Of a stretch of 64,000 nucleotides of DNA, positions 625 through 55,507 are shown piece by piece. Position numbers and translations under genes: made by a program. This stretch comes from an uncultured bacterium (GTDB lineage: Bacteria > Chlamydiota > Chlamydiia > Chlamydiales > JAJFMA01), in assembly GCA_964445105.1 (NCBI GenBank), contig CAYUJS010000003.1:9059-73058 (forward strand), read 5' to 3'. Numbering within the stretch: position 1 is the stretch's first letter; each line of letters starts with the position of its first letter. The notes beneath the pieces are model-generated. The model was given only the letters and a program-made list of their open reading frames with translations, ran no database searches and was not told the DNA's origin.

Positions 625-628
625 GTTA

Positions 629-4433: not shown

Positions 4434-4551
4434 AAATTCCTCGTTTTGCCGAAAGAGCTAACACAAAAATCAGATTTTAGGAAAGATTTCATTACTTTTC
4501 TAGAATCCTTATCCGACCTAGAATAGACCTCTTTAAAGCGGGGAGCTGTGC

Positions 4552-22778: not shown

Positions 22779-22800
22779 CCAAAACCTAGTGTATTTTATC

Positions 22801-24582
22801 ATGTTACAACTGAAGTTAGTATCAAAGTCCTTTGGTGGACAAAAGCTCTTAGATGAGGTCTCTTTGTGCGTGAGCCACGGAGAGCGCGTCGCACTTGTGG
22901 GGCGCAATGGCGCCGGCAAATCTACGCTGCTGCGTTTGATCGCAGGCGAAGAAGAGGTAGACGGCGGAAGCATCATGATCCCCAGAGGTTATCGCATCGG
23001 CTTTTTGCATCAGCACCTCGATGTGACGGAATATACCGTGATCGACGAAGCAGCTCTTGGACTGGTGCAGGACAGGCCGGAGCATCGTCATCGCGTCGAG
23101 GCGTTGCTGTTTGGTCTTGGCTTTTCCAAAGACGACCTCTACAGCCACCCGGACTCTTTTTCAGGCGGATACCGCATCCGCATTCACCTGGCGAAACTAC
23201 TCGCTTCAGAACCTGATTGCTTGCTTTTAGATGAACCCTCCAACTACCTAGACATAGTTTCGCTTCGCTGGCTGGTGCGCTTTTTGCAGCGCTGGAAGGG
23301 TGAAATGATCGTTATCTCCCATGACCGCGAGCTGCTCGATGCCATCTCTACGCACACCGTGGGCATTCATCGCAAAGAACTCAAGAAGGTGGAGGGTGGG
23401 ACCGAAGAGTACTATTCGCAGATTCTTCTAGAAGAAGAGGTTTTCGAAAAGACGCGTGTAAAAACGGAAAAGAAAAAAGCGCACATGCAATCTTTTGTAG
23501 ACCGTTTCGGTGCCAAGGCCAGCAAGGCAGGCCAGGCCCAATCCAGAATGAAAGCGCTGGCGCGCTTACCTGTTTTGGAGCAGTTAGCTGCGCTTGAAAA
23601 TCTTGATTTTAAGTTTCGCTATGCGCAGTTTAACAGCCAAAAGGTTCTGGCCGCCACAGATTTAGGGTTCGCCTACCCCGAGATGGACCATCGTATCATA
23701 AACCAATTTGACCTGCTGGTCGAAAAACAGCAGAAGTTGGCCCTTATCGGTAAAAACGGCAAGGGTAAGTCCACTCTGTTACAGCTTTTGGGAGGCATTT
23801 TAGTACCGCAGGAGGGAGTAGTCAAACTCTCTGAGAACGTGCGTATTGGCTACTTTGGACAAACGCACATTGAGCGCTTAAATTTGGCCAAGACGGTTCA
23901 TGAAGAGGTTTCTACAGCTAACCCGAATCTGACCTATTCCTCAGTGCGCGCCATCTGCGGAGCGATGATGTTCTCAGGGGATGCAGCGGAGAAAAAAATC
24001 TCGGTACTGTCTGGGGGCGAGCGCAGTCGGGTGCTTTTGGGCAAGATTTTAGCCGCCCCTTGCAATCTCCTTCTCTTAGATGAGCCTACTAACCACCTAG
24101 ACATGGAATCTGTGGAGGCTTTGGTTACGGCCATCGAGCTGTTTGAGGGGGCCGTGATTCTCGTCACTCATGCCGAATGGATTTTGCGCAGGTTGCCTGA
24201 ACGGTTGGTGATCTGTCGCGATGTGGATAAAATAGTTTTTGAGGGTACTTACGAAAACTTCTTGGAGAAAATTGGCTGGGAGGAGGGAAAACCCGCAGCG
24301 CCAGAGAAAAAACCTTCTAAACCCATTTTAGGACGCAAAAATCCTGCTCAGGCAGCTCTAAGAAAACGCATGGCTGATCTAGAAAAACAGATCACGGAGG
24401 TGGAGGTGGCGATGGAGGCCTGCACCAATAAGATCATAGAAGCCACCCATGTGCATAACGCCACTTCTATGGGCAAGCTATCCAAAGAGCTCGATCAGCT
24501 GCAGGTAAAGTTGGATCTATACTATCATGAGTATGGCGTGGCCGAGAAACTAGCAGCGGAGGTAGAGAGCAGCCCCCACTAA
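22801..24582 (+). CDS. ABC-F family ATPase
   Basis: Two NBDs (GRNGAGKST and GKNGKGKST, with LSGG signatures), no TM region and a coiled-coil C-terminal tail. The stop codon lies inside a repeat end. Confidence 0.9.
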   Translation: MLQLKLVSKSFGGQKLLDEVSLCVSHGERVALVGRNGAGKSTLLRLIAGEEEVDGGSIMIPRGYRIGFLHQHLDVTEYTVIDEAALGLVQDRPEHRHRVEALLFGLGFSKDDLYSHPDSFSGGYRIRIHLAKLLASEPDCLLLDEPSNYLDIVSLRWLVRFLQRWKGEMIVISHDRELLDAISTHTVGIHRKELKKVEGGTEEYYSQILLEEEVFEKTRVKTEKKKAHMQSFVDRFGAKASKAGQAQSRMKALARLPVLEQLAALENLDFKFRYAQFNSQKVLAATDLGFAYPEMDHRIINQFDLLVEKQQKLALIGKNGKGKSTLLQLLGGILVPQEGVVKLSENVRIGYFGQTHIERLNLAKTVHEEVSTANPNLTYSSVRAICGAMMFSGDAAEKKISVLSGGERSRVLLGKILAAPCNLLLLDEPTNHLDMESVEALVTAIELFEGAVILVTHAEWILRRLPERLVICRDVDKIVFEGTYENFLEKIGWEEGKPAAPEKKPSKPILGRKNPAQAALRKRMADLEKQITEVEVAMEACTNKIIEATHVHNATSMGKLSKELDQLQVKLDLYYHEYGVAEKLAAEVESSPH

Positions 24583-24702
24583 AAAATAAGCAATCGGCCT
24601 CATGCTGTTGCCTATCCGCAGCTGAGGCTACCAATTTCGTCGCAAGCTAAGCCTTCTGTCAACCCTCGCCGAGCCAGTTTCTTGTTTCAGCAGAAGCTGC
24701 TG
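24568..24702 (+). repeat. Repeat copy E, followed by an extra right-end fragment at 24711-24740
   Basis: agcagcccccactaaaaaat (left end), ggctaccaatttcgtcgcaagct (core) and gccagtttcttgtttcagcagaagctgctg (right end). The second end-like piece is gaaacccggttgcttttttttcgctaatct. Confidence 0.6.
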
Positions 24703-24789
24703 CAGAGGCTGAAACCCGGTTGCTTTTTTTTCGCTAATCTGTCATCCATAGTGGTATCTACCACAACGTCTTTTACTAAGGAGAAGGAT

Positions 24790-25134
24790 ATGGGAAAATG
24801 CGATGATCATTGCGGCTCTCACGATCACGAGCACCGCCACCATCACCACAGTTGCGCAGACGAATTCGAAAGCTGCTGTGAAGATGATTGCTACGAGGAC
24901 TGCGATAGCGACTTTGCTGAAGAGATGCTAGAACTAGCTGACGACGCTTGGCTGTGTTTGTTGAAAGACAAAGTCAAAGAGCAAATTTTGGCCACTAGCG
25001 GTAAGCAGCTTGATGAACTAGCTAAGCTAATCTCCGAAGCCAATTGCGCCCGTTGGAAGTCAAAAATGGCAGAAGAAGCTGCCGTAGACGGATTTAGGGA
25101 TGAATTGCGCAGTTTTTTTGGTAAATGCGAGTAG
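24790..25134 (+). CDS. Small acidic protein with a His/Cys-rich N-terminus, putative metal binding
   Basis: Strong RBS (taaggagaaggat) before ATG 24790. The N-terminus is MGKCDDHCGSHDHEHRHHHHSCADEFESCCEDDCYEDCD, the C-terminal half is helical, and a strong terminator follows. Confidence 0.6.
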   Translation: MGKCDDHCGSHDHEHRHHHHSCADEFESCCEDDCYEDCDSDFAEEMLELADDAWLCLLKDKVKEQILATSGKQLDELAKLISEANCARWKSKMAEEAAVDGFRDELRSFFGKCE

Positions 25135-25219: not shown

Positions 25220-27007
25220 CTAGGCTGTATTTTTTTTGCTTAGTTCTTCCCAGCGGAGGTAAAGCTGCTCTATCTGATTTTCGGCCAGGCCTACGGCTGC
25301 GCAGAGATCGTGTAGGCGTTGGCCATCTCCCGCGATAACAGGGTCACATAGCAGTTTGTTGAGCTGTTTGACCTCTTCTTCTAGCTTGGCGATCTTGCCT
25401 TCCAGCTGTTCATATTCGCGTTTTTCGGTGTAAGAAAGCTTCGTTTTAGGAGCTGCTGATAGTTCTTTCTTTTTCTCCCTTGTTGGCTCTGAGACGTTTT
25501 TGATAGGTGCCTGAGTCGTTTGCCACTGTGCGTAGTCCGCGTAAAACTCAGTTTTGTCTGGATCGCCCAGCGCTAGCACCGAATTGCAAATGCGGTCGAG
25601 CATGCAGCGATCGTGTGTGATTAGGACGACGGCACCAGGAAAATCGATGAGGCCATTTTCTAGCATCTCTAGCGTGGGGATGTCGAGGTCGTTGGTGGGC
25701 TCATCGAGCAACAGCAGATCAGCTGGCTGTAGCATGAGGTGTGCAACGGAGATACGGGCTCGCTCACCCCCAGAGAGCTTTCCTATAGGCATGTCCAGCA
25801 CGTCCGGGGAGAAGAGAAATCGTTGACACCAGCCGTTGACGTGAATGGGCTGACCACGGAAATTCACAAAATCGCCGTTAGGGGAGAGCGCCTGTCGCAG
25901 CGAAAGAGTATCAGGCAAACGCGCGCGGTGCTGGTCGAAGTACACGACTTTTAAGGCGTCGGCTCGTTTCAGGGTCCCTTGATCGGGGGCCAGTTCGTTA
26001 GCGAGCAGGCGCAGTAAAGTGGTCTTGCCGCAGCCGTTAGGACCCATGAGACCGATGCGCGAACCCGGCGAGAGGGTGAGGTCGAGATTGCGAAAAAGCA
26101 GCCGATCTCCCAGCGTTTTACTCAGATTTTTACCGGTGAGCAGTTTTCGTGTTTGACGTTCGGTGCCTTCAAAATCGATGTCGGCCTTATGCTGGCGATT
26201 GCGTTTATGGACGTCGGAAAGTTCTTTCAGAGTATCGTGGGCGTCATCGATGCGCGACTGGGCTTTGGTGGTGCGCGCCTTTGGCGACTGGCGCAGCCAT
26301 TCAGTTTCTTTACGCGCTTTGGAGGCGATGGAGCGCTCCTGTTGGAGCTGTCCCTCTAGAAAGAGCTGCTTCTGCGCGAGAAACTGACTATAGGGGCCGT
26401 CGATGGCGAACATGCCCCTGGGATAGGCTTTGTTGATCTCTACCACGCGATTGGTGGCGTTCTGTAGAAAGTAGCGGTCATGGCTGACCAGGATATAGGT
26501 GGTTGCTTCCCGCGCGAGGAACTTCTCCAGCCAAACAATACCTTCGAGATCCAGGTGGTTCGTCGGTTCGTCGAGGAGAAGTAGGTCGGGAGAAGAGATC
26601 AGCTCCCTAGCCAGGGCTAGGCGCTTTTTCCAGCCGCCAGACAGAAGTGCCGCTGAACGGTCGCTTTGGCGGAAACCAAATTTGCTCAGCCAGGTTTCGG
26701 CGTGGCGCTCTTTTTCGTAATCGGGCCCGGACGGCTGAGCGTCGACGAGTACTTCCAAGGGAGATTTGTCTGGAAATTCGCAAGTTTGCGGCACATAGCC
26801 AATGCGCAGGCCTTTGCGTGGCGCGAGGGTGCCGACGTCTGGGCTTTCCAGTCCGGCGATGATCTTCAATAGCGTGGTTTTTCCCGAGCCGTTGGGACCG
26901 ATTAGCCCTAAGTGGTCGCCTGAAAAAATGCTTAGGGTTAAGTCTTTGAATAGATTGCGCGTCCCGATTGATTTAGAAACAGCCTGGCAGCTATAGAGTA
27001 GGTTCAT
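25220..27007 (-). CDS. ABC-F family ATPase, Uup-like
   Basis: Two NBDs (GPNGSGKTT and GPNGCGKTT, with LSGG signatures) and a C-terminal coiled coil. Confidence 0.9.
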   Translation of the reverse strand: MNLLYSCQAVSKSIGTRNLFKDLTLSIFSGDHLGLIGPNGSGKTTLLKIIAGLESPDVGTLAPRKGLRIGYVPQTCEFPDKSPLEVLVDAQPSGPDYEKERHAETWLSKFGFRQSDRSAALLSGGWKKRLALARELISSPDLLLLDEPTNHLDLEGIVWLEKFLAREATTYILVSHDRYFLQNATNRVVEINKAYPRGMFAIDGPYSQFLAQKQLFLEGQLQQERSIASKARKETEWLRQSPKARTTKAQSRIDDAHDTLKELSDVHKRNRQHKADIDFEGTERQTRKLLTGKNLSKTLGDRLLFRNLDLTLSPGSRIGLMGPNGCGKTTLLRLLANELAPDQGTLKRADALKVVYFDQHRARLPDTLSLRQALSPNGDFVNFRGQPIHVNGWCQRFLFSPDVLDMPIGKLSGGERARISVAHLMLQPADLLLLDEPTNDLDIPTLEMLENGLIDFPGAVVLITHDRCMLDRICNSVLALGDPDKTEFYADYAQWQTTQAPIKNVSEPTREKKKELSAAPKTKLSYTEKREYEQLEGKIAKLEEEVKQLNKLLCDPVIAGDGQRLHDLCAAVGLAENQIEQLYLRWEELSKKNTA

Positions 27008-28966: not shown

Positions 28967-29839
28967 CTATGAAATCAGCCAGACTGTCGAGGTGGCCCAC
29001 AAGCAGGCTGTGATGAGGGTGTGTCGATCACCTAAGAGCTCTCTTGCGGGATTTTCGCCCGCTTTCCAACGGTGTAATAAATAGAGGTAGCGGAAGATAC
29101 CGTAGGTGACCATGGGGACCGTCCCGATTAAGTACTGGGTGTGGTGCGCCTGGATGGTTTGGGCGGCCGTGGTGTACAAACTGTAAGAAATGATTGCCCC
29201 AGCGGAGGTGATACTCAGTAGGTTATCCAGCAGCGCTGGGGTGTATTGTGTGAGGACCTTCCGTCGGTGCGTAGTCTGGTCTCCAAGCACAAGGATTTCG
29301 GCGCGGCGTTTGGAAAAACCTAAGAAGAGAGTGAGCATAGCGGTGCAAAGAAGCAACCATTCAGAAGGGGGAATGCCGACGCCGAGAGTGCCCGCTAAAA
29401 CACGCAGGATAAATCCTGCTGAGATCACGAAGACATCGACCAGAACCACATTCTTGAGTTTGTAGGAGTAAGCGAGGTTGAGGATGGTGTAACCGATCAC
29501 CAGCCAGAAATCAGTGTGGCTCACCAACGAGGCAATATAGATCGATCCAACCCAAAGTGCGCTTGCTAGCGCCAATGCTACAGACACAGAGACGGTGCCT
29601 GCGGCTAGCGGGCGATTTTTCTTTTTAGGGTGGTGCCGGTCGCTCATGCAGTCAGACCAATCATTCAGAATGTACATAGCGCTGGAGGCAAGCGAAAACG
29701 CCAACGCCGCAGCTATCACATGCAGGAAAAGGGGACCATTGTCCCAAGCATGGCTGAAGAAGAGGCCGATCAAAACAAAGCCATTTTTCCACCACTGTAC
29801 GGGCCTCATGAGCTGCAGCAATTGCTTGGGGTGATTCAT
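28967..29839 (-). CDS. UbiA-family polyprenyl-phosphate 5-phosphoribosyltransferase (Rv3806c-like)
   Basis: Polytopic membrane protein. The motif NDWSDCMSDRHHPKKKNRPLAAG parallels NDxxDxxxDxxHPxKxxRPxAxG of the mycobacterial DPPR synthase, as I recall it. Confidence 0.8.
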   Translation of the reverse strand: MNHPKQLLQLMRPVQWWKNGFVLIGLFFSHAWDNGPLFLHVIAAALAFSLASSAMYILNDWSDCMSDRHHPKKKNRPLAAGTVSVSVALALASALWVGSIYIASLVSHTDFWLVIGYTILNLAYSYKLKNVVLVDVFVISAGFILRVLAGTLGVGIPPSEWLLLCTAMLTLFLGFSKRRAEILVLGDQTTHRRKVLTQYTPALLDNLLSITSAGAIISYSLYTTAAQTIQAHHTQYLIGTVPMVTYGIFRYLYLLHRWKAGENPARELLGDRHTLITACLWATSTVWLIS

Positions 29840-29848
29840 GACCTCTCC

Positions 29849-30592
29849 TTACAGCTTTAGACGCTTAAACAGACGCTCTGGAATGGCACAGATGATGTAC
29901 ATAACATAACGCCAAAACCAGGGGAGATACACTACGTCGGTAGATTTCTCCAGGGCCCGAACAATTCCTTCCCCAATCTCAATGGGAGAAGCCACTAGGA
30001 ACATGCCTTTTTTTCCGAAGGTCATCGCGGTGTCCACAAAGCCAGGTTTAATGGTGACGACGCGTACAGAGCTTGGGTAAAGCCGGTTTCGCAAGCCCTC
30101 TAAATAGATGCTGAGGCCGCTTTTGGCGGATCCGTAAAGGTAGTTACTTTGGCGCCCGCGGTCGCCTGCGACTGAAGAAAGAGCCACCATGAAGCCCTGC
30201 TTTCGCGTTTCGAAGTAGTTGGCGCATAGGTTGAGGATAGAGCAAGGTCCGGTGTAGTTGCGCTCGATGATCGCCTGCGTTTCAGAGAAGTGTCGCTGGC
30301 CGCTTTTTTGGTCGCCAAGATAGCCCACTGCTAGCACCACGCCCGATAGCTCGCCACAGCTGTCGATGGCGGTTTGCAAGAAAGAGGGATGGGAAGCAAA
30401 ATTTTGGACATCAAAGGTAGCAAATAGCACCTTCACTTGAAAACGTATTTGCAGATCGCAGGCGAGCCGCTGCAGCTCATCGGCATCTCTGCTGGCTAGG
30501 TATAGGGGGTATCCTCTTTCTGCCAGCGATTCAGCAACGGCGCGCGCGATGCTGGAGGTAGCTCCAAGGATAAGTACGGGGTGCGGGGCCAT
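29849..30592 (-). CDS. Short-chain dehydrogenase, DprE2-like
   Basis: SDR fold (GATSSIARA, YxxxK as YGSAK). About 250 aa, lying between the DprE1-like and UbiA-like genes. Confidence 0.7.
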   Translation of the reverse strand: MAPHPVLILGATSSIARAVAESLAERGYPLYLASRDADELQRLACDLQIRFQVKVLFATFDVQNFASHPSFLQTAIDSCGELSGVVLAVGYLGDQKSGQRHFSETQAIIERNYTGPCSILNLCANYFETRKQGFMVALSSVAGDRGRQSNYLYGSAKSGLSIYLEGLRNRLYPSSVRVVTIKPGFVDTAMTFGKKGMFLVASPIEIGEGIVRALEKSTDVVYLPWFWRYVMYIICAIPERLFKRLKL

Positions 30593-31941
30593 TAGGGCTC
30601 TCCGATACGCAAACGCCGAGCCAGGTCAGAGCTAAACTGGTTCTCTGGGTCGTATTGGCGCTTGATGGTGAGCCATTCGCAATAACGAGGATACATTTGG
30701 CGAAAGCTTTCCGGGCTGAGGCGCGCATCCTTTGCAAGGTAAATGCGGCCACCGTGCTGCAGGACGATCTCATCGAGCTGGTTAAGATGGTGGAGCGAAT
30801 CAGTGCCTTTGATCGGCAGATCCACAGCGAGTGTGTATCCGTTGGTGGGAAAGGAGAGCAGACCCAGTCCTTGAGCGCCGAAGCGTTTGACGACCGCCAG
30901 AAAAGAGGGGTCGCCTCTATGACTTAATTTGTTAAGCACCTGCTTGAATCCTTCCAAAGCGGTTGTGTGAGGCAGTACACACTGATACTGTACAAAGCCC
31001 TTTTTACCATAAAGACGGTTCCAGTGCGCGACTGCGTCGAGCGGATAAAAGTAGCTGCGGTAGTCGGTAACGAAGGGAGCTTTTTTACGACTCTGCAGTT
31101 GGTAATAAAGGCCATTAAAGAGGCGTACAGAGCAGGGGCCAATGAGAGAACGGCTCGGGCTAATAGGGAATGATAGGTGCTTTTGAGAGGGCAGGGCAAA
31201 AGGATCTCTGCCTGCAGGTAGCTCGCTGCAGGTGGCGTGGCGGCCTACCATGAGCACGCCTTTGCCCATCTTAGCTCCCTTAGCGAGGCAGTCGATCCAG
31301 GCCACGGAGTAGAGGTCGTCCTTGTTTTTATCGTCTAGAGCGGTAAAGAGCTCTTCAAGGTTCGCCGCCGCATGGTGGTGACAAATTACAGAGGCTGTTT
31401 CAATCGGCCTTAGTTGCAGTGCCACCTCGGCAATAATCCCGGTTAAACCCATGCCGCCGATCGTAGCATAAAATAGCTCCGCATGCTCTGTAGGGCAGCA
31501 GCGCCGCAGAGAGCCGTCTGCGATCAGCAGATCTATGTAAAGTACGTGGCCCGCCAGGCTGCCATCGCGATGGTGATTTTTTCCGTGCACGTCGGCGGCA
31601 ATGCAGCCGCCGAGCGTTACATACTGTGTACCCGGTGTGACGGGCAGAAACCAGCCAGCCGGTACTATGAACTTTAGGAGGGTTTCCAAACAAACGCCTG
31701 CTTCGGCTCGCAGGACTCCCTTGTCAGTATCAAATGCTAGTACGCGATTGAGCTTTTCAGTGAGGATTACAGTACTCTTGGAGCTAAGGGCAGCATCTCC
31801 GTAACTGCGGCCCAATCCGCGTGCGAGCTTGGGTCCGCCGATAACCAATAGCTCTTGGTAGCGCTCTGGACGGCACACAGAAGCCTGGATCGCGGGGTAG
31901 TTATTCCAAGAGGTGAGCGCTGTTAGCATTGTGGTCGGCAT
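30592..31941 (-). CDS. FAD-dependent oxidase, DprE1-like (polyprenylphosphoryl-ribose 2'-oxidase family)
   Basis: Long colinear motif matches to M. tuberculosis DprE1 from memory: ARGLGRSYGD, GG.IA.D.HGKNHH, GG.GLTGII, FYPLD....WNR.YG..GF.QYQ, GGR.Y.AKD and DP...F.SD.ARRL. Confidence 0.85.
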   Translation of the reverse strand: MPTTMLTALTSWNNYPAIQASVCRPERYQELLVIGGPKLARGLGRSYGDAALSSKSTVILTEKLNRVLAFDTDKGVLRAEAGVCLETLLKFIVPAGWFLPVTPGTQYVTLGGCIAADVHGKNHHRDGSLAGHVLYIDLLIADGSLRRCCPTEHAELFYATIGGMGLTGIIAEVALQLRPIETASVICHHHAAANLEELFTALDDKNKDDLYSVAWIDCLAKGAKMGKGVLMVGRHATCSELPAGRDPFALPSQKHLSFPISPSRSLIGPCSVRLFNGLYYQLQSRKKAPFVTDYRSYFYPLDAVAHWNRLYGKKGFVQYQCVLPHTTALEGFKQVLNKLSHRGDPSFLAVVKRFGAQGLGLLSFPTNGYTLAVDLPIKGTDSLHHLNQLDEIVLQHGGRIYLAKDARLSPESFRQMYPRYCEWLTIKRQYDPENQFSSDLARRLRIGEP

Positions 31942-32018
31942 CTACTCTTTTTACAAAATACAGAGCTAAAAAGCAAATACGCGAAGTGTTTTACAACGCT
32001 TCGCGCATTAAATTTTGG

Positions 32019-33014: not shown

Positions 33015-34391
33015 ATGGAGGCATGGGAGCAGTTCCTGTTGATGCAGGAACGAGAAATTGGCGCCGATACAGTGCTTAAGTGGCTGCGTTCGCTGCGTTT
33101 ATTGCGCTTTGATGCTTGTAATCTTTATTTAGAAGCGCGCGATGCCTTCCAGGTCTTATGGTTTGAAGAACATATGCGGGCTAAAGTCCTGAAGTATCTA
33201 AAAAACAACAACAACCACCGCATCGATGTGCACCTCACTTTAGTCGGGTCGGAGACTGTCAAGGCAGCAAATAATCGCAAAAAAGGAGCGGCAAAAGAGC
33301 CAACCAATACCTTCGAGCTCTCCTTCGAAGAGTGGAATCCGATTTGTACGTTTGAGAATTTGGTGCTCACTGAGCATAACTTGTTAGCCCATAAAATCCT
33401 GCGCGAAGTGGCGGGTCAGCAGCTAGCCCCTCAAATCACTACACATTCGGAATCTCAGTTAGCAGTATTTAATCCCATCTACCTCTATGGTCAGAAGGGG
33501 ACAGGAAAGACCCATTTGCTGCAGGCAGTGGCCTACGCGTTGAAAGAGTCTGGCAAGAATGTTCTTTATGCGAGGGCGGAGACCTTTACAGATCATGTCG
33601 TAGCGGCAATTCGGGCAGGGGAGATGTCTATCTTCCGGAAGGCGTACCGCAGTATTGACGTGCTGTTGTTGGACGATATCCACGTATTTTCGCGCAAAGG
33701 GGCTACACAGGAAGAGCTTTTTCATACCTTCAACACGCTTCATTTGGTGGGTAAGCAGATCATCATGAGCTCGAACTGCGCACCGCAAGAGCTCAAGATG
33801 ATCGAGGCACGCCTAGTCAGCCGGTTTGAATGGGGGATCGTGCTGCCGCTTGAGCCGTTGCAGCCCGACGAGCGGTTAGCCGTTTTGCGCACGAAAGCAA
33901 AAGCCTTGGACGTACAGCTGTCTAACCGCGCTGAAGAATATCTATGGAAGACTTTTTCGAGTAATATCGGCGCACTTTGCCACGCGCTAGAGGCGTTGGC
34001 ACTGCGTAAACATGTGCGAGAAGGCTCAGCAAAGGGTGCTGTGATCCAATTGGCCTCGGCTAGGGCATTACTAGAGGATCTCGTTGCAGAAGAGGTTGCG
34101 CACGCCCTGCAGCCCGAGCAGGTGGTACGTGCGGCAGCTGAGCACTTCGGGATACGTATAGAGGATATTATAGGCCGTGCGCAGAGCAGAGAGTTTGCCC
34201 TCCCCAGGCAAATTGCCATGCACATTTGCCGCATGCGACTCAAACTTCCCTTCACCAAAATAGGTGACCTCTTTCAAAGGGATCACACCACCGTCATGGC
34301 TTCCGTTACGCAGGTCCAAACGCGGTTAGATCTGTCTGATCACGATCTCGCTGCTGATATTTGTGCTGTCGTGAAGAAATTGGAACGTTAG
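33015..34391 (+). CDS. dnaA: Chromosomal replication initiator DnaA
   Basis: Walker A GQKGTGKTHLL, LLLDDIH and the C-terminal DNA-binding helix region (FTKIGDLFQRDHTTVMASV). Confidence 0.95.
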   Translation: MEAWEQFLLMQEREIGADTVLKWLRSLRLLRFDACNLYLEARDAFQVLWFEEHMRAKVLKYLKNNNNHRIDVHLTLVGSETVKAANNRKKGAAKEPTNTFELSFEEWNPICTFENLVLTEHNLLAHKILREVAGQQLAPQITTHSESQLAVFNPIYLYGQKGTGKTHLLQAVAYALKESGKNVLYARAETFTDHVVAAIRAGEMSIFRKAYRSIDVLLLDDIHVFSRKGATQEELFHTFNTLHLVGKQIIMSSNCAPQELKMIEARLVSRFEWGIVLPLEPLQPDERLAVLRTKAKALDVQLSNRAEEYLWKTFSSNIGALCHALEALALRKHVREGSAKGAVIQLASARALLEDLVAEEVAHALQPEQVVRAAAEHFGIRIEDIIGRAQSREFALPRQIAMHICRMRLKLPFTKIGDLFQRDHTTVMASVTQVQTRLDLSDHDLAADICAVVKKLER

Positions 34392-37233: not shown

Positions 37234-38077
37234 CTTTTTGGACGTAGGGCAAGACACGGCGTTGTACAAAACGTCGCCACGAAGGGAGGGTATCTTTCAC
37301 CATTATCTCGTAATAACCTAAGCGACAAGGCGACAACTGTTGTTTTTTGATTGCGTTGACGACGAGTCGGATGCTGAGCCCTTTATGACGAAACCGCGGG
37401 TCAATATAGAGCGCAGAATAGCGGATGACCTCATCGGCCACTCGATGTGTAACCATCCAGCCTATGACTTCTCCCTCGTGGCGCAGACCGATGCTGTTGC
37501 TCCATTCAATGCGGTTTTTGTCCCTGTGCGTAGGCAGTACGGATAGAGAAATGGCCCCTTGCTGTCCTTGATGCGTGATACTTGCTGCTTGCTCCTCAGT
37601 GAGTTCAGCCCAGGGGAATTCTTCAAATCCTTTGGGGAGTGGAGGAATGCGGTCAAACCAGGGTGGAGTTAGGGTGTGGACGTCGTGATGGTGCTGCTCG
37701 ATAAACGGTTGGGGAGCAAACCAGCCAGGTCCCGTCATCAGGTGTTCTAAGTTCTTTAAATATGGATTATCAGACGATAAGTAAACGGTTAGGATAAGCT
37801 CTTCTTGTTTCACCATCGTTGCGACCAGCAGGTCGAGCAGCTGTCTTGCGAGGCCTTGTCCACGGTGTGATGGCAAGATGAAGAGGTGCTCCAGCTCATA
37901 CCCGCGGATAATCGGTCTGGCTACGAGTAGCCCGGCAGGCTCGCCTTGGTCGAGGGCTGCATAGGCGAGAAATGCCACCTCTGCTGGATGAAAGCGGCAC
38001 GAGGCATGCGGAGGAAGCAGGGGGCGGTAAAGTTCGCTTTTCCACTCTTGCGTGGTAAGAGGAACGATATCGACCAT
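37190..38077 (-). CDS. Tandem GNAT acetyltransferase-like protein
   Basis: Two acetyl-CoA-type motifs (HRGQGLARQLLDLL and FRHKGLSIRLVVNAI). Its ATG overlaps the stop of the upstream 743-aa gene (TAATG). Its 3' end overlaps lgt by 44 nt in convergent orientation. Confidence 0.65.
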   Translation of the reverse strand: MVDIVPLTTQEWKSELYRPLLPPHASCRFHPAEVAFLAYAALDQGEPAGLLVARPIIRGYELEHLFILPSHRGQGLARQLLDLLVATMVKQEELILTVYLSSDNPYLKNLEHLMTGPGWFAPQPFIEQHHHDVHTLTPPWFDRIPPLPKGFEEFPWAELTEEQAASITHQGQQGAISLSVLPTHRDKNRIEWSNSIGLRHEGEVIGWMVTHRVADEVIRYSALYIDPRFRHKGLSIRLVVNAIKKQQLSPCRLGYYEIMVKDTLPSWRRFVQRRVLPYVQKVNQVRLAWKKIQPN

Positions 38078-40308
38078 TAGGGCGTCTCCAAATCTGCTAA
38101 AAGTTGGTTAAACTCGGCTAATCCCACGGAGTGAAAGAGGAGGTGGAGCCCGTTTGTCAATGGAAATTGCGAAAAAGAGAGCGAGCGCTCACTTTCCAGT
38201 ATCGATTTGGCTTCGTCCACAGCCGTCCCGCTAATCGCTATTTCCACAAATCTCCACAAAAGGCGGGCGTCTTGTTGGTAGAATGCGTAGATTGCGCCGA
38301 TTTTTTCTAACGAGTTTTTTTCATCACTGGTCAGCCAGGCCTGTATTTGACACTCCTGGATGACCTGTGCAATGTCGCAGTCGATCAAGTCCTTTATAGC
38401 CGTTAGGAAAGGCATATCCTCTACCTCCGACTGGCGAAAAAGCTCGACATTTCGCCAAAAACGCTTCTGCATCTCTTTTCTTTGGTCTTGCGATGTGATG
38501 TGATGAAAGGCCGAGCGCAGGCTGGTATGGGTTTGTAGCTGTTCTTTTTGGTTCCAAGGAAAGACGCAGCGGCCTTGCTTGCCTGTGGGGTCCAGCAAAC
38601 TCACGGTCATGGCGATTTGGATGCTGTAGGGGAGGTACCAGGTAAGATATTCTTCGAGGCCATACCAAGGACGTGTCGGGACGGCGCCTGTTGGATAACG
38701 GGGGCCTGCAAGGTGGATGGAAGGGTGAAGCAGCGGGTTTGCTTCCATTAGCCCCCTCAAATGCTGCTCTTCAGATCCAAAAGGAAGATTCAGGCAAATT
38801 TTCGGTTTGGTCACATATTCAGACATGGCCGCTGAGCAAATATCCGTTGTCCACTGGCTTGAGGAAAAGATTGCTTTGGGATCCGTCAAAACTTGCCTGA
38901 AGGCGGGGTAAATAATGTTAAACTTTGTGGCCCGTCCGATGGCGTAGCTCGCGGAACAGGAATAGCGATTGAACGCTTCATGTGCAAAAAAGGCATGGCA
39001 AAAGAGATTGGAAGGGGGAATTTCCATGTCGTCGTCGATCATGAAAATGGCATTACCTGCCAGCTCTTTGTGGGCCAGTACGTGGGCTTGGAAAAGCTGT
39101 TTTAAAAGGGCTGGATCTGATGCGAGCATGGCCTGCACGGTTTGGTACCCCCGCACGAACAGTTGCCTAAGTACAGGTGTAAGGAGAAATACGCAATTGC
39201 GCGCGCCGCCGAAGCCTAACTGTCCCTTTTGGGTGGTGTCTAGGAGGCGCTCGGCGCCGATTTTTTTGCCTAGCATAAGAATTTGCGCGAGATGGAGGTG
39301 TAAGATGGGGCACTCGTAGCGGCGGGCCAGCTGTGCGAGATAGTGTTGGTTGATCGCGTAGATCTCTGGCTCAGACTGGTCGTAAATAAAAATTGGGAAC
39401 GCGCCGAGCGAAGGTAGAACGTCTTTTAGCCCCCTGAGAAGAGAGGCTACCCCTGGCAGGGCGGCAAGGTTTTTATTTCTGGTAGGTATAGCGCAGGTCA
39501 GCATTTGTAGGCCAGCGGTGTACTTGTTTGGCTGCTGACGCATTGCTTCGAGATGCATGAGGATATTTAGCGCATAAGAAAGAAAGGCCACCATCTCACC
39601 TGCAGCTATTTGTGGGAGCGCCTCGGGGCGCTCGAAAAGCTTACAGAGAAGCTGTAGTTTGTCGTGTAGCGAGGTCTCTGGTTGTTTGGTTCCTTTCCAA
39701 AGGAAGGGCACCTGGTTGTGTAGCCCGAAGCGACGGGTGAAATTCTGAAACTCGGAAAGGGAAGGTACGTAGCGGAACCGTTGCTCCAGCGCCCGCTTGC
39801 GCTCGGCAGCTTGCCCTAGGTCGCCCTCAGTAACTTGGGCAATATGTAGAGGGGAGGCGACGATGAGGGGGATTAGCCGGCAAAAAAGATTGAAACAGAG
39901 TTCCGTTTGTTTGCGGGCATACACTTCTTGGAAGGCGAGAAGTTGACTCAGCTCTAGGGGAAGCCGTTGGTTGAGGTCATAATAGTAACTGCGAAAGCCG
40001 TCAATCAGCGTTTGCAGGGGGTGGTCTAAAGGGTAAATTGTTTCGAGGGTTGTGAGGATTGCATAAGAGCCCTCTCGGTAATTTCTAAAGGCGTAATAAA
40101 CAAGCTCTACAGTTTCATTTAGAGTAAGTTCGCGCAAAGCTTTCTCTAAAGTGTCTGGACAAGCGCTTTCAGCGAGCCTCTGTAAGAGGGCATACTCATC
40201 TAAGTCACAGATTTTAAGCCCGGTATAGAAAATTTCATATTGGACAGCCGTTAAAAAACGACGGCGATCCAAAGCGGAAAGGAGGGGTTGATTCTTGGTA
40301 CGAGGCAT
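38077..40308 (-). CDS. Large hypothetical protein with a central GT-A-like glycosyltransferase motif set
   Basis: 743 aa. Residues about 270-440 carry, in order, AIPTRN, IFIYDQS, GFGGARN and IFMIDDDMEIP, the order expected for a GT2-like GT-A fold. The flanking roughly 270-aa and 300-aa regions are unrecognised. Confidence 0.6.
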   Translation of the reverse strand: MPRTKNQPLLSALDRRRFLTAVQYEIFYTGLKICDLDEYALLQRLAESACPDTLEKALRELTLNETVELVYYAFRNYREGSYAILTTLETIYPLDHPLQTLIDGFRSYYYDLNQRLPLELSQLLAFQEVYARKQTELCFNLFCRLIPLIVASPLHIAQVTEGDLGQAAERKRALEQRFRYVPSLSEFQNFTRRFGLHNQVPFLWKGTKQPETSLHDKLQLLCKLFERPEALPQIAAGEMVAFLSYALNILMHLEAMRQQPNKYTAGLQMLTCAIPTRNKNLAALPGVASLLRGLKDVLPSLGAFPIFIYDQSEPEIYAINQHYLAQLARRYECPILHLHLAQILMLGKKIGAERLLDTTQKGQLGFGGARNCVFLLTPVLRQLFVRGYQTVQAMLASDPALLKQLFQAHVLAHKELAGNAIFMIDDDMEIPPSNLFCHAFFAHEAFNRYSCSASYAIGRATKFNIIYPAFRQVLTDPKAIFSSSQWTTDICSAAMSEYVTKPKICLNLPFGSEEQHLRGLMEANPLLHPSIHLAGPRYPTGAVPTRPWYGLEEYLTWYLPYSIQIAMTVSLLDPTGKQGRCVFPWNQKEQLQTHTSLRSAFHHITSQDQRKEMQKRFWRNVELFRQSEVEDMPFLTAIKDLIDCDIAQVIQECQIQAWLTSDEKNSLEKIGAIYAFYQQDARLLWRFVEIAISGTAVDEAKSILESERSLSFSQFPLTNGLHLLFHSVGLAEFNQLLADLETP

Positions 40309-48364: not shown

Positions 48365-48634
48365 ATGAAGAAACTAGCATCCTTCACATCCTCTCTGGCG
48401 GTCCTGGCATTAGCCGTGCTACTTACAAGCTGTTCTAGTTGTGGCTGGGATAACTCTTGGCTGGACAGCTGCTGCAATATCCGCAACGAGGGTTGTGAGC
48501 AAAAAAGCTGTTGCAATAGACCACAAGTTCCAAACGGCCACCACAATCACTGCCACTGTCCTAGCCCAGAATGGTGCGGCGAAAGACAAGCATACGATTA
48601 CTGCGATCCTAGCGATTATCGACTCCGCTATTAG
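48365..48634 (+). CDS. Second small cysteine-rich lipoprotein (OmcA-like paralogue)
   Basis: AAGGAG RBS before ATG 48365. Lipobox LLTSC. Cys/His-rich mature part. Confidence 0.6.
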   Translation: MKKLASFTSSLAVLALAVLLTSCSSCGWDNSWLDSCCNIRNEGCEQKSCCNRPQVPNGHHNHCHCPSPEWCGERQAYDYCDPSDYRLRY

Positions 48635-48686
48635 TCGTACACTAATTGTCTGACACTTGAATAACAAAAAATCTAAGGAGACTTTA

Positions 48687-50228
48687 ATGAGGAAACAACT
48701 GGGAACACTAATGTCGCTCATGCTTTTTTGCGCGACAGCCTTGTTAGCTGTTAGTTGTTCCGGATTCAACCGTGGTGGCAGTGACTATTATGATACCTCG
48801 GCCGGATATAACTGGAGTTCGAAAGGCGCTTGCTCAGAAGGCCAAAGACAGTGCGGCCCCGGCCGCGAGCAAGCGAGCGCGAGTAATATTACCTGCGACG
48901 GAGTACAGGTGATCGCCAGATTACCGAGCATGTGCTTGCTAGGCGATCAATTTTGCCTAGATCTGGAAGTTCACGCCCTACGTGATGTCTGTGATGTCAC
49001 TATCGGTACAATCCTCCCAGAAGGTGTACAGTTCATTCGCAGCGAACCCGACGCTTTTGTAGACGGTTCTAAATTGGAATGGACTCTAGATCACCTACGT
49101 AACGGTGAGTGTCAGAACGTACGTATCTGCTTGCGTTGTGAGAAAGAAGGCGCTGCTTGCACCTGCTTTTGTGTCAGCGCAACACCAGTCGCTTTCTGCA
49201 CCCTCTTATGCGCAAGACCTGTTCTGTGCTGCGAAATCTGCGGCCCAGAAGAAGCTGGCCCGGGTGATTGCCTAAACTACACAATCAACGTAGCCAACCG
49301 CGGCACTTGCACAGCCTATGACGTTGTCGTAGTCAACCGAGTTCCCGATGGACTTGAGCATGCAAGCGGACAGACTTGCTTGACAAACAGACTGTGTGAG
49401 CTAGCGCCTGGCGAAACTAAGTGCTTAAACATTTGTTACCTAGCTGCGAAAAGAGGCCGTATCGTGAATACAGTCTCAGTTTCGGCTTGCAATGCAGAGC
49501 CAAGCTCTTGCGAGTGCGCTTGCGTATGCTGCAAATATTGCTGCGAAGTTGTTAAAGAAGGTCCTAAGGAAGTGCGTATCGGCCAAAACGCCGATTACGA
49601 CATTCACGTAACCAACGTTGGCGATAGACCGCTTACAGAAGTTACTGTGTGTGACTTGGCGCCCGCGGGCACTTCCATCGTGTCGGCCAACGGAGCACAT
49701 ATCTCCGGCAACCGCGCGGTATGGCAGATCGATGAGGTAAGAGCCGGTGAAACGGTGACCCTACCCATTACCCTGACTACTTGCAGCCCAGGCTACTACT
49801 GCAACCGCGTTTCTGTTAGTAACTGCCAAGGTGCATGTTGCTCAGCAGAGTGCTTATGCCGTTGGAAAGGTACGCCAGCGCTGAACGTATCCGTACTGGA
49901 CCTTACAGATCCAGTTTGCATCGGAGATACCACTAGCTACAGGATCCAGGTGACCAACCAAGGATCCGAACCCGACGAAAACGTTAGAGTGACTGTTCGG
50001 TTCCCAAGTGAAATTGCGCCAATTAGCGCACGTGGTGTAACAACAGGTACAATTTCTGGAGCAACGGTAACTTTTGCCCCTTACAGCCCACTCGGGGCGC
50101 GCCAGACTGTCGACTTCTACGTCGATGCCCGTGCGCACCAGGCAGGGGATGCTCGTATAAAGGTCGAAGTGATGTCTGATTCGATTACTACACCTATCGT
50201 GCAAGAAGAGAGTACGATAGTGAACTAA
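48687..50228 (+). CDS. omcB: Large cysteine-rich envelope protein, OmcB-like
   Basis: TAAGGAG RBS before ATG 48687. Signal/lipobox LLAVSC. Very high Cys content and repeated DUF11-like segments (Y.I.V.N.G...A..V.V). Confidence 0.8.
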   Translation: MRKQLGTLMSLMLFCATALLAVSCSGFNRGGSDYYDTSAGYNWSSKGACSEGQRQCGPGREQASASNITCDGVQVIARLPSMCLLGDQFCLDLEVHALRDVCDVTIGTILPEGVQFIRSEPDAFVDGSKLEWTLDHLRNGECQNVRICLRCEKEGAACTCFCVSATPVAFCTLLCARPVLCCEICGPEEAGPGDCLNYTINVANRGTCTAYDVVVVNRVPDGLEHASGQTCLTNRLCELAPGETKCLNICYLAAKRGRIVNTVSVSACNAEPSSCECACVCCKYCCEVVKEGPKEVRIGQNADYDIHVTNVGDRPLTEVTVCDLAPAGTSIVSANGAHISGNRAVWQIDEVRAGETVTLPITLTTCSPGYYCNRVSVSNCQGACCSAECLCRWKGTPALNVSVLDLTDPVCIGDTTSYRIQVTNQGSEPDENVRVTVRFPSEIAPISARGVTTGTISGATVTFAPYSPLGARQTVDFYVDARAHQAGDARIKVEVMSDSITTPIVQEESTIVN

Positions 50229-52604: not shown

Positions 52605-53993
52605 TTACATCTTAAAGGCCAGGTATTCGCGGAACTGTTTCGCTATCTTGGGATTGATCTGCTTGGCTAAGAAATAGTGGCGCTCGGCTGTTTTTTGGTC
52701 GCCGAGTTCAAGACACACAATGGCCAATTTGACATGGGTCAGCGCGTGGTTGGGATCGAGGAGGAGGGCTTTATCTAAGTGCTTTTTAGCAGGTCTCCAG
52801 CGCGAAGCGGTGATGGCGTTTTCTGCCGATTGCAAGAGCTCTCCCAGGTCTGCAGTGGTATGCATTTGGGTTTCTTGGATCCGTTGTAGCATTTCTGAGA
52901 GAGGGCCTAGTTCGCTTTTAACGATGGTAGGCGCTTTGTTGTGTGGGGGCTGGCTGCTTTGATGCGTAAGAGCAAGTTCTGGGTCGGTCAGCCAGTCCTC
53001 TAACTCAAGGAAATCTTGCGGTCGATCTTGCGGGCTTTCGCTAAGGCATGCCTCGACAAAAGGTCGCCATTTTTCAGGAATCAGCTCCCATTTAATAGCG
53101 TTGCGGGTGGTAAAGCGCTGGTGCGTAAATAGCGAGGCCGCCAAAGCTCCGAAAGCAAAGAAGTCGGCAGAGGGCCCCACGTCATGCAGGCGGTTGGGCT
53201 TTTTTTGCTCGGGCGCCAGATGGGCCATCTGTTCCAATATTTCGTGGCTGCAGTAGCGCTCTAGCGGGAGTTTTGCCTGGCGCAATTTTTCCAACCGATT
53301 GCAAACTCGTTGCGGACCTAAAGCAAAAGCTAGTCCCGCATCGGCAATCGCTAAATGTCTCACGCGGTTGCCGGAGTCTAGATCGATGACAATGGAGCGC
53401 GGTAGCAAAAAGCCATGATAAATATGGCCGCCAAATTCCGCATGTAGGTCGTGCAAACGTGCTAGAGCGCGCGCCACTTCCAGCAAAATCTCTTCGCGAT
53501 CTACATGGAGAAGCCTTTGATCGGTTAGAAAATGTTTAAGGGTGAGAAAACGTTTACCCTTGCGATTGATTAGCTGATTTTGTACCAGCACGAGAAGCCT
53601 TTCGTCATGTTTCCAAGAATACTGGGAAAATAGCGGGAGCTGGTGAAAATGTGTGGCGCGCCAAAAACAGCGAAATCTGTCGCAAACTTCTGCATTATTT
53701 AGGTCGGGTGGAGGGATAAGACAAAGGCCGTGCTCTCCCTGGGGTAGGCGCACGATGGTTTGGCGTCCGAAGAAATCGGCTTTATGTGTGTCTTGGAAGA
53801 TAAGCTCTTTAGAGAGTTCTAAGGCTCTTTCGTAATGCGCGCGGAAATGGTAGGCCAGCAGGTCATGCTTGCGCTGGCGCGCTACCAACAACCAGTAAAA
53901 GGCGCCCAAAAGAGAGAGGATCAAAAACAACCCAGCCAACAAAGGCCCTAGATGAGACTGTAGGGCTAGGCTAAAGCGCTCAACTAGGGACAT
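52605..53993 (-). CDS. Membrane-anchored protein-kinase-like domain (predicted pseudokinase) with C-terminal TPR repeats
   Basis: N-terminal TM helix. Kinase-like subdomains are recognisable: YHGFLLPRSIVID in place of HRDLKPxN, IADAGLA for DFG, LAPE for APE and DFFAFGAL. The tail is TPR-like. Confidence 0.6.
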   Translation of the reverse strand: MSLVERFSLALQSHLGPLLAGLFLILSLLGAFYWLLVARQRKHDLLAYHFRAHYERALELSKELIFQDTHKADFFGRQTIVRLPQGEHGLCLIPPPDLNNAEVCDRFRCFWRATHFHQLPLFSQYSWKHDERLLVLVQNQLINRKGKRFLTLKHFLTDQRLLHVDREEILLEVARALARLHDLHAEFGGHIYHGFLLPRSIVIDLDSGNRVRHLAIADAGLAFALGPQRVCNRLEKLRQAKLPLERYCSHEILEQMAHLAPEQKKPNRLHDVGPSADFFAFGALAASLFTHQRFTTRNAIKWELIPEKWRPFVEACLSESPQDRPQDFLELEDWLTDPELALTHQSSQPPHNKAPTIVKSELGPLSEMLQRIQETQMHTTADLGELLQSAENAITASRWRPAKKHLDKALLLDPNHALTHVKLAIVCLELGDQKTAERHYFLAKQINPKIAKQFREYLAFKM

Positions 53994-55507
53994 AAAAATC
54001 GCACCTCTACCCGTATACAGCAGGCTGGCGCGCGCTCAAGAGTGCGTAAAAAAATCTGCCAATCGAAGGCGGCGAAGCGCTCTGCACCAAACGCGCCAAG
54101 TTGTCCTGGGCGGTTCCCTTGTGCAATATGACCAAAAAAGCGTCCTTGGCCCGATTCTAGACAAAACTTCAGACTAAAGCTCTGATTTTTTGCGCGAAGT
54201 ATGATCGTTTCACCAAGAGGGAAGGCGGTGCCAGCCTTATCTTCACTGATTTTTATATCCAGCCCCTCGTGCTTATCCGCAAAGAACATGATCTCACGGT
54301 TTTTCTGACGAGCTTCCGTCGGCACTTCTTCCGGTAGTGTGAAGTAGAGATCTACTCCATTTTCTTTTATCTGGTAGCGAATTTCTTCGGCGTTTCCGCC
54401 GGCACAAACCAGTGTATGTGTGCTGTTTTGATCGCCCCAGATTACTTTCAGGGGGCAATATCCGGGATTGGCGTTGTGCTCTTTGCTTTTTGTAAGCAGG
54501 GCGAACGCGTAGTTTTCCCCTTGATGGATGTGCCAAGCTCGCCCCGCAGCGTGTCCTTCGGCGGTGAGTGGAAGCGGCGGTGCACCAAGCCGGTCGGCTG
54601 AGGCGTGTACAAGCGCGCCTCGCACAGCGAGCGGCTTATTTAAAAGAGCGCGGTACGATAGCTTGCCGGTGTAGTAGCCCATAAATAGGTCGTAAAGCGT
54701 CGTTTCTGGCTCGCTTTTATCTTGCTGTTCGCTGAGCGCGGGGCCCGCATAAGAACAGGTGGCAGCGTTCCAGACGTTAGCTAACCAGCTGCCGAATCGC
54801 ACCCAGGGGCTGTCGGCAAGCTGCTTATAGGCCATCTGCAGTGCGATGAACGTATCTGCGATAACTTCGGGAATAAACCAATCCAGGAAGTCGGGAGCTT
54901 CAGCCACTTGGCGCAGGCTTTCCAAAGTATGCCGCCCGCGAGCTTCTAGCTCGGCCGCGTTCCACAAAGTGCCAAAGCCTGCTTGAGCACCAGCAATTTT
55001 TATCGCCAAACCAAAGGGCAGCTTGGCTAGGGCCTGAAGCTCTTTTGTTTGTTCTAGCATGGCTTGGGCAGCTTGCTCGGTTCGGCTCTTGAGAGCGCTA
55101 CCCAAAACGGTTCCGAATTCTACCAATATCCAGTAGAACGCGGGGAGCAGCTGAGCGTTGATGAAAAGATCGCGGCATTCTGGATATTCATGAAGGTAGA
55201 CGGGAAATAACCCTTTGCGCTCGTCCTGGGCCACATTCTGAAAACTAAGCACCCGTTCTAGTAAGCGCTTTCCTTCTTGCAAGCCCTCTTTGCTGCGGTC
55301 GCGCATAAGCCCCAATGCGTAGTAAACGTTCTCCACTATAGGAATAGTGTCGGCATGCGGAAAATCGGCGCGGTTATGAAAATAATGGAAAAATCCTGTT
55401 TGCGGGCTTTGAGCGCCGCGGCCTGCGTTGAGCGCAATTTCCGCCATCTGGCGTGCGCGATCCGGTTTGCCCAGTACTTCTTCGATGATTTCTGAATCTA
55501 ATGCCAT
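53984..55507 (-). CDS. Hypothetical protein (507 aa)
   Basis: ATG 55507 overlaps the stop of the upstream GT26 gene by 10 nt, and its own stop overlaps the kinase-like gene start by 10 nt. The N-terminal half is helical, but I cannot assign a fold. Confidence 0.55.
   Translation of the reverse strand: MALDSEIIEEVLGKPDRARQMAEIALNAGRGAQSPQTGFFHYFHNRADFPHADTIPIVENVYYALGLMRDRSKEGLQEGKRLLERVLSFQNVAQDERKGLFPVYLHEYPECRDLFINAQLLPAFYWILVEFGTVLGSALKSRTEQAAQAMLEQTKELQALAKLPFGLAIKIAGAQAGFGTLWNAAELEARGRHTLESLRQVAEAPDFLDWFIPEVIADTFIALQMAYKQLADSPWVRFGSWLANVWNAATCSYAGPALSEQQDKSEPETTLYDLFMGYYTGKLSYRALLNKPLAVRGALVHASADRLGAPPLPLTAEGHAAGRAWHIHQGENYAFALLTKSKEHNANPGYCPLKVIWGDQNSTHTLVCAGGNAEEIRYQIKENGVDLYFTLPEEVPTEARQKNREIMFFADKHEGLDIKISEDKAGTAFPLGETIILRAKNQSFSLKFCLESGQGRFFGHIAQGNRPGQLGAFGAERFAAFDWQIFLRTLERAPACCIRVEVRFLCP

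Follow-up and report, generated by a model that had tools for sequence, protein, structure and literature searches.

Lipid-linked D-arabinofuranose (D-Araf) pathways of Gram-negative bacteria are among the closest described counterparts of the locus analyzed here. In Pseudomonas aeruginosa Pa5196, D-Araf glycosylation needs at minimum a DPPRS homologue, DprE1 and DprE2; neither the phosphatase nor a GtrA-like protein is required, the C-type glycosyltransferase (GT-C) TfpW is unlinked, and DprE1 is only 33% identical to the Mycobacterium tuberculosis enzyme. In P. indica the D-Araf genes are clustered with pilA and tfpW (bioRxiv 10.1101/2020.04.19.049825 for both species). A more general route was described by Kelly et al. 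(PNAS 2024, PMC11127046), in which a UbiA-type synthase makes undecaprenyl-phospho-ribofuranose from phosphoribosyl pyrophosphate (PRPP), optional epimerases decide the identity of the pentose, with DprE1/DprE2 as the marker for Araf, and a flippase and a GT-C complete periplasmic glycosylation in Gram-negative bacteria; in Gram-negative loci, Araf-containing glycans correlate with DprE1/DprE2 homologues. The window considered here is a stretch of 64,000 nt of contig CAYUJS010000003.1 (GCA_964445105.1, Chlamydiales JAJFMA01), available as metagenome-assembled genome (MAG) sequence only. Its minus strand carries three adjacent genes, hereafter the trio, for a DprE1-like oxidase, a DprE2-like reductase and a UbiA-superfamily phosphoribosyltransferase resembling mycobacterial Rv3806c (Table 1). 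The trio probably constitutes a translationally coupled operon for a polyprenyl-phospho-β-D-arabinofuranose donor, a functional reading that is well supported by the homology of all three products. In light of the Pa5196 and Kelly et al. routes, this donor is also the most likely product of the chlamydial operon.

The trio stands at the end of a same-strand run in which fer2 is followed by a DUF1858/IscA-like gene and then by dprE1, dprE2 and the UbiA-type gene, with a pseudouridine synthase gene and a rhodanese gene beyond. The dprE1 stop codon and the dprE2 ATG share one base (ccCTAATGgcc, a TAATG junction), and the spacer that precedes the UbiA-type gene holds its ribosome-binding site, GGAGAGG. 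Opposite-strand open reading frames (ORFs) of 80-97 aa occur inside the trio genes, overlapping the long frames, and these short antisense ORFs are treated as incidental. The UbiA-type protein passes the NCBIfam decaprenyl-phosphate phosphoribosyltransferase model NF008977 (271 bits against a cut-off of 234), and its residues 8-283 align to residues 18-293 of the Rv3806c structure 8j8j (E 7e-30, 32% identity). The NDxxDxxxDRxHPxKxxRP and KRxAE motifs are invariant across the UbiA-type proteins of the clade formed by the window and its close relatives. The 290-residue protein has no additional domain, and in particular no phosphatase domain.

The DprE1-like protein combines a FAD_binding_4 domain (PF01565) with the ALO C-terminal domain (Pfam), and matches NCBIfam NF053785 at E 3e-133 and 445 bits, with the runner-up family 380 bits lower at 65 bits. 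Residues 3-445 align to residues 7-459 of M. tuberculosis DprE1 structures (E 3e-94, 40% identity), and R58, S59, Y60, G117, H132, K134, Q334, Q336, K367 and K418 are conserved (M. tuberculosis numbering); H132, K134, Q334, Q336 and K418 are shared by the window protein and all three clade relatives. From this conservation we infer that the enzyme would oxidize polyprenyl-phospho-ribose to the 2′-keto sugar. Relative to M. tuberculosis the protein carries three substitutions (C387 to Ala, N385 to Thr and Y314 to Phe), and the identical three occur in the closest proteobacterial homologue, from locus L083; Ala at position 387 is found in L083 and also in the three close chlamydial homologue clusters P0002-P0004. 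Cys387 is the covalent benzothiazinone site, a trait of drug-sensitive actinobacterial DprE1 that catalysis does not need. Therefore, by comparison with natural Cys387 variants, the window enzyme with Ala at this position would presumably be benzothiazinone-insensitive.

Among solved structures, the DprE2-like protein matches M. tuberculosis DprE2 best (21gq_C; E 9e-29, residues 3-246 against 9-253, 32% identity), and the second-best short-chain dehydrogenase/reductase (SDR) structure reaches only E 8e-13. The protein passes the NCBIfam SDR model PRK07102 (301 bits against a cut-off of 267) and retains the GATSxIA nucleotide motif, the S...YxxxK catalytic motif and a C-terminal WRYVM..IP..FKRL tail. 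Re-reading of the stretch returned exactly the coordinates, minus-strand orientation, TAATG overlap and 9-nt spacer given in the original prediction. Its identification of the trio as homologues of Rv3806c, DprE1 and DprE2 agrees with the profile and structure matches and the intact catalytic motifs, and its description of the DprE1-like protein as colinear with the mycobacterial enzyme is borne out by the full-length alignment and intact catalytic residues.

Taken together with the published routes, these matches suggest a pathway of four steps. First, judging from homology and motifs, the UbiA-type enzyme would move 5-phosphoribose from PRPP onto polyprenyl phosphate, most likely undecaprenyl phosphate, the cell being of Gram-negative type. 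Second, the 5′-phosphate would be removed by an unlinked or non-specific phosphatase, for which the window offers no candidate gene. Third, the flavin adenine dinucleotide (FAD) enzyme would oxidize the ribose 2′-OH to the 2′-keto form, which the SDR would reduce with inverted stereochemistry to arabinofuranose. Donor synthesis would thus far take place at the inner membrane, on its cytoplasmic side. Fourth, the lipid-linked sugar would be flipped to the periplasm, again by a protein for which the window offers no candidate gene, and an unlinked polytopic transferase of GT-C type would decorate an envelope glycan or protein.

Several points weigh against this reading. (i) Both oxidoreductases fall short of their equivalog models: the DprE1-like protein scores 445 bits where NF053785 asks for 500, and the DprE2-like protein 172 bits where the actinobacterial DprE2 model NF053786 asks for 250. 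(ii) The partner genes are missing from the neighborhood. The Pfam search covered the 47 ORFs of at least 150 aa with the exception of 22789-24582 and 25220-27007 (ABC-F-like ATPases) and 33740-34258 (antisense within dnaA), NCBIfam the Pfam-negative ORFs, and a hydropathy scan all ORFs of at least 90 aa. In the window, no protein matched a GT-C family, and none of the unassigned ORFs of at least 350 aa had seven or more transmembrane (TM) segments; there was no HAD or PAP2 family that might supply the 5′-phosphatase, no protein of GtrA, SMR or MATE type and no small TM-rich ORF; and beside the trio there was no dedicated flippase, the LPG_synthase_TM type included. The original prediction had already noted that neither the phosphatase nor the GT-C is in the window, with which both the Pfam and the hydropathy scans concur. 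In the relatives L001 and L002, the 10-kb flanks of the trio are likewise devoid of candidates for the GT-C, the phosphatase and the flippase. (iii) In other phyla, a large polytopic membrane protein is encoded at most 6 kb away in 35 of the 51 DprE1 loci that have at least 6 kb of sequence on both sides. (iv) In a neighbor-joining tree the deep nodes have bootstrap values of 14-43%, too low to identify the donor lineage. (v) For chlamydiae, the evidence is homology throughout, and the pathway presupposes a supply of PRPP in this organism.

The bearing of the missing transferase depends on what such proteins look like elsewhere. When ten of the polytopic neighbors were run against Pfam, three belonged to GT-C families (PMT_2 or GT87) and seven had no match; since the linked transferases are this diverse, a Pfam-negative result is not by itself enough to dismiss a transferase. 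The only large polytopic proteins in the window are a xanthine/uracil permease, MgtE, an ABC transporter, an EamA protein and a DUF368 protein. The last of these, matched in two stretches that suggest an inserted segment, and a DedA/UptA-like homologue are the only flippase-like candidates of the window; both genes lie far from the trio, and their products are probably general carrier-lipid recyclers.

The shortfall against the equivalog cut-offs bears on the possibility that the same folds perform other chemistry, producing a pentofuranose other than Araf (for example by stopping at polyprenyl-phospho-ribose or at the 2′-keto sugar) or acting on another lipid or acceptor. The Thr, Phe and Ala found in place of N385, Y314 and C387 would fit such a change, as would the use of other epimerases by related systems to diversify their pentofuranoses (PMC11127046). 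However, the proteobacterial L083 homologue carries all three of these substitutions too, and the validated P. aeruginosa DprE1 is less like the M. tuberculosis enzyme (33%) than is the window protein (40%). Furthermore, K418, H132, K134 and Q334/Q336 are conserved, the oxidase-reductase pair is intact and translationally coupled, and the published xylofuranose systems use a different, single SDR rather than a DprE1/DprE2 pair (PMC11127046). We therefore consider a different chemistry unlikely, and retain the arabinofuranose donor as the probable product.

The history of the trio was examined through its relatives. In a collection of 5.8 billion proteins, only three close DprE1 homologue clusters were found (P0002-P0004, 69-73% identity); beyond these, identity falls to ~57%, and the named matches are Gallionellaceae and Nitrosomonadales MAGs. 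The trio is present in three related assemblies, with identities of 69-73% for DprE1, 68-76% for DprE2 and 81-83% for the UbiA-type protein, and DnaA is 78-81% identical between the window and these trio-carrying relatives. Both relatives with long contigs (L001 and L002) have dnaA-fer2-iscA followed by DprE1-DprE2-UbiA. In one relative, an rtcB-archease RNA-ligase pair stands between the IscA-like gene and dprE1 (L001 7608-9861; L093 6506-8759), and the trio is therefore a separable unit. In the third relative (L092, which carries P0003), the UbiA-type gene (2201-3070) is inverted and convergent with dprE2, and still adjacent to it. More distant chlamydiae differ: Parachlamydia has dnaA-ahcY-lgt-fer2-iscA with no trio after iscA, and two nearer relatives (DnaA 58-59%) have no trio within 8 kb of dnaA. 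No further clade member was found among JGI metagenome contigs scanned with a clade-specific UbiA alignment (top match 43% identity), and a DprE1 scan of species-representative genomes gave no chlamydial locus among the matches listed.

Between clade members, the pairwise nonsynonymous divergence (dN) of the trio is 0.10-0.23 and the synonymous divergence (dS) is saturated, a pattern that DnaA shares; the saturation precludes a dN/dS ratio, and the conclusion on selection is qualitative only. Neither the G+C content at third codon positions (GC3) nor the codon usage of the trio is deviant. In the neighbor-joining tree, the four clade DprE1 proteins group with 100% bootstrap within the Gram-negative DprE1-like radiation. 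A recent transfer was considered and ruled out by the ordinary GC3 and codon usage, together with the presence of the trio in relatives that have diverged from one another. Instead, the low dN, saturated dS, ordinary composition and shared arrangement point to one old, lineage-specific acquisition held under purifying selection, and are at odds with both a remnant in decay and a chimeric contig. Outside chlamydiae, the clusters most similar to the trio (L083 and L003) are 54-61% identical for each of the three genes. The source of a single ancient acquisition by one environmental Chlamydiales lineage was probably a Gram-negative six-gene cluster of this type, ordered GT-C/DprE1/DprE2/HAD/UbiA/flippase-like, and the trio would since have been kept under purifying selection.

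Such an origin raises the question of whether the trio is an orphan remnant of the transferred six-gene cluster, left with no transferase and making no arabinosylated product. Indeed, neither this locus nor those of the relatives include the GT-C, HAD and flippase-like genes found around the trio in the closest clusters. Against a remnant stand the intact frames and catalytic residues in four diverged genomes, a dN as low as that of DnaA with dS saturated, and the retained translational coupling. Linkage is also an imperfect guide: the GT-C of P. aeruginosa is unlinked (bioRxiv 10.1101/2020.04.19.049825), and about one third of the loci of other phyla likewise have no linked polytopic protein. 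On balance, a functionless remnant seems to us improbable. Whether the donor is actually spent on a D-Araf decoration of an envelope or secreted glycoconjugate, via an unlinked transferase that may lie outside the recognized GT-C families, is a separate matter; we propose this tentatively, with our own judgment close to evenly divided and inclined slightly toward doubt.

The host assignment rests on several genes of the window. An OmcB-like protein with a Chlam_OMP6 domain (Pfam) is encoded, and a cysteine-rich lipoprotein gene lies directly upstream of it, an arrangement like that of omcA-omcB. The window DnaA, encoded ~1 kb from the trio, has PRK12422 as its best NCBIfam model. Its nearest sequences are three or four very close relatives at 78-81% identity, and named relatives are further off (a Chlamydiales MAG at 59%, Protochlamydia phocaeensis at 57% and Parachlamydia at 55%). 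In one relative, a gene for a CesT chaperone adjoins dnaA. The G+C content of the window, ~51%, is high for Chlamydiota. These features point to a deep-branching environmental Chlamydiales lineage as the probable host, and the omcA/omcB-like pair and DnaA relatives are in line with the earlier description of the genome as Chlamydiae-like. An assembly or binning artefact that joined a non-chlamydial trio to a chlamydial contig, as might be suspected from the betaproteobacterial nearest homologues outside the clade (Gallionellaceae and Nitrosomonadales MAGs, ~57%), is highly improbable given chlamydial genes on both sides of the trio on the same contig (dnaA ~1 kb away, and omcA/omcB in the window), the recurrence of dnaA-fer2-iscA-then-trio in two independent assemblies, a fourth contig that bears the trio with ubiA inverted, and the non-deviant composition.

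The distribution of the system across bacteria proved far wider than the original prediction had supposed. That prediction knew the trio, outside Actinobacteria, only from special glycosylation systems; this is contradicted by 1,989 DprE1-like clusters (50% identity level, E<=1e-30, among 1.84 billion cluster representatives) from nearly every phylum, and is countered also by the published general Gram-negative pathway (PMC11127046). At this clustering level the chlamydial clade apparently has no representative of its own, the best being 53% identical among the matches listed. The species-representative genome scan gave DprE1 loci from at least 12 phyla, including Proteobacteria, Bacteroidota, Acidobacteriota, Cyanobacteriota, Planctomycetota, Verrucomicrobiota, Bacillota, Chlorobiota and Chloroflexota. 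Of 84 comparison loci, 74 have DprE2 next to DprE1, 56 include a UbiA-type gene and 20 an HAD gene; a DprE1-DprE2 pair with a UbiA-type neighbor is thus the usual arrangement across phyla. Some family members are 670-710 aa long (e.g. P0264, P0270, P0308 and P0343) and may be DprE1-DprE2 fusions. Similarly, UbiA-type ORFs of ~480-500 aa in many, mostly proteobacterial, loci (L041, L055, L062, L069-L082) may be synthase-phosphatase fusions of the kind represented by Citrobacter ORF15.

The earlier statement that an Araf glycoconjugate is undescribed in chlamydiae has held up: our literature search found no report tying DprE1 or arabinofuranose glycans to chlamydiae, and the lone match to 'decaprenyl' concerned co-occurring Actinobacteria. 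Although widespread in bacteria, the trio has apparently not been reported before from chlamydiae; its enzymology offers nothing new. The usual picture of the chlamydial envelope is of a glycan-poor structure, with truncated lipid A bearing 3-deoxy-D-manno-octulosonic acid (Kdo) and a cysteine-rich protein lattice. If the proposed pathway operates, it would provide the first pentofuranose glycan in Chlamydiota and in an obligate intracellular bacterium, and some environmental chlamydiae would build an extra surface glycan of the kind seen in mycobacterial arabinan or Pseudomonas pilin. Surface Araf could then change how an amoebal or animal host recognizes the cell, and could alter cross-reactivity with anti-arabinan antibodies. 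As a prediction from assembled sequence, the finding is of moderate relevance to chlamydial envelope biology. Beyond chlamydiae, it illustrates that a three-gene core can persist without linked partners, which helps the annotation of many similar metagenome clusters.

Other elements of the window touch the trio less directly (Table 1). The interval between dprE1 and the IscA-like gene contains a stable hairpin and, after it, a U-rich tract (UAUUUGCUUUUU); the hairpin folds at -20.5 kcal/mol (z = -3.9 against shuffles). It looks like an intrinsic terminator, which suggests that the trio is partly insulated from fer2-iscA; this minus-strand reading comes from the RNA fold and not from the terminator scan, in which the inverted repeat at 31980-32005 was called only as a plus-strand terminator-like site. 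A conserved regulatory role was also considered for the hairpin and ruled out, as it is not kept in L001 or L002, and its role is uncertain for that reason. Further along the minus strand (52605-56451), the gene for a WecG/TagA/CpsF-family glycosyltransferase precedes a 550-aa ORF without family assignment, after which comes the gene for a 462-aa TPR protein with a single TM segment. The region suggests an undecaprenyl-diphosphate-linked glycan pathway in this chlamydia, which might conceivably provide the acceptor for the pentose. One 150-aa ORF, placed between the two ABC-F-like ATPase genes, includes a His/Cys-rich stretch and may bind metal. The 743-aa ORF beside a GNAT acetyltransferase gene has a counterpart of 737 aa in the same GNAT-adjacent arrangement in L093, and may be a conserved protein specific to the clade. 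Among the relatives themselves, L002 encodes at 1-5127, a few kb from dnaA, a toxin-like protein of more than 1,786 aa with RHS/YD repeats and also a YafQ/ParE-type toxin. The chlamydial relative L085 (ERZ25039454 contig_1137, DnaA 58%) is a single 3.9-Mb contig, which would be very large for the phylum.

Table 1. Coordinates of the trio and of other features in the 64,000-nt window
Feature	Position	Strand	Basis
DprE1-like FAD-dependent polyprenyl-phospho-ribose 2′-oxidase, 449 aa	30592-31941	minus	ORF list and homology
DprE2-like SDR (2′-keto reductase), 247 aa	29849-30592	minus	ORF list and homology
UbiA-superfamily polyprenyl-phosphate 5-phosphoribosyltransferase, Rv3806c/DPPRS-like, 290 aa	28967-29839	minus	homology
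9-nt spacer with ribosome-binding site for the UbiA-type gene	29840-29848	minus	direct reading, ctgTAAggagaggtcATG
Stable hairpin and U-rich tract between the IscA-like gene and dprE1	31976-32009	minus	RNA fold
OmcA-like lipoprotein, 89 aa, LLTSC lipobox, 12 cysteines	48365-48634	plus	sequence reading
OmcB-like protein, Chlam_OMP6 and DUF11 repeats	48657-50228	plus	Pfam
DUF368/VCA0040-like protein, 408 aa, NCBIfam polyprenyl-phosphate transporter 190 bits (cut-off 400)	60963-62189	minus	NCBIfam/Pfam
DedA/UptA-like polyprenyl-phosphate transporter homologue	1856-2389	minus	Pfam/NCBIfam
WecG/TagA/CpsF-family glycosyltransferase	55498-56451	minus	Pfam/NCBIfam
ORF, 150 aa, no family, His/Cys-rich stretch CDDHCGSHDHEHRHHHHSC; flanked by the two ABC-F-like ATPase genes	24682-25134	plus	
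ORF, 743 aa, no Pfam/NCBIfam family, adjoins GNAT acetyltransferase	38077-40308	minus	ORF list

The chlamydial trio can be compared with several known systems. The mycobacterial decaprenyl-phospho-arabinose pathway (Rv3806c, the Rv3807c phosphatase, DprE1 Rv3790, DprE2 Rv3791, Rv3789 and the GT-C arabinosyltransferases Emb/Aft) shares the three core enzymes and the same predicted order, from PRPP through lipid-phospho-ribose-5-phosphate, lipid-phospho-ribose and the 2′-keto intermediate to lipid-phospho-Araf. Unlike the mycobacterial pathway, the chlamydial locus has no PAP2 phosphatase, GtrA-like protein or Emb/Aft transferase nearby, and, as Gram-negative bacteria use undecaprenyl carriers, its lipid is probably C55 and not C50. 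The chlamydial trio also forms one operon, whereas the M. tuberculosis genes occupy two separate loci. The P. aeruginosa Pa5196/PA7 cluster for type IV pilin arabinosylation (PsPA7_6245-6251, with unlinked TfpW) has the same Gram-negative three-enzyme core, and the window DprE1 shares 45% identity with its P. indica counterpart (L081); in contrast to Pa5196/PA7, the chlamydial window shows no gene for a pilin, TfpW, a phosphatase or a GtrA-like protein. Three-component pentofuranose systems, with Citrobacter youngae O1/O2 as the prototype and Araf types with DprE1/DprE2 in Stenotrophomonas maltophilia and other bacteria, have in common with the trio a UbiA-superfamily synthase and epimerases. 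Their synthase, often HAD-fused, is encoded in one locus with a MATE/SMR flippase and a GT-C (GT136), whereas the chlamydial locus consists of the synthase and epimerase pair only, the synthase having no phosphatase domain. Closest of all is the uncharacterized Gallionellaceae/Nitrosomonadales-type MAG cluster (L083 and L003), which runs PMT_2 GT-C/DprE1/DprE2/HAD/UbiA/LPG_synthase_TM. Relative to that cluster, the chlamydial locus has the 9-nt spacer in place of the HAD gene and is missing the outer GT-C and flippase-like genes, but its three genes keep the same order and orientation and find there the closest sequence relatives of all three.

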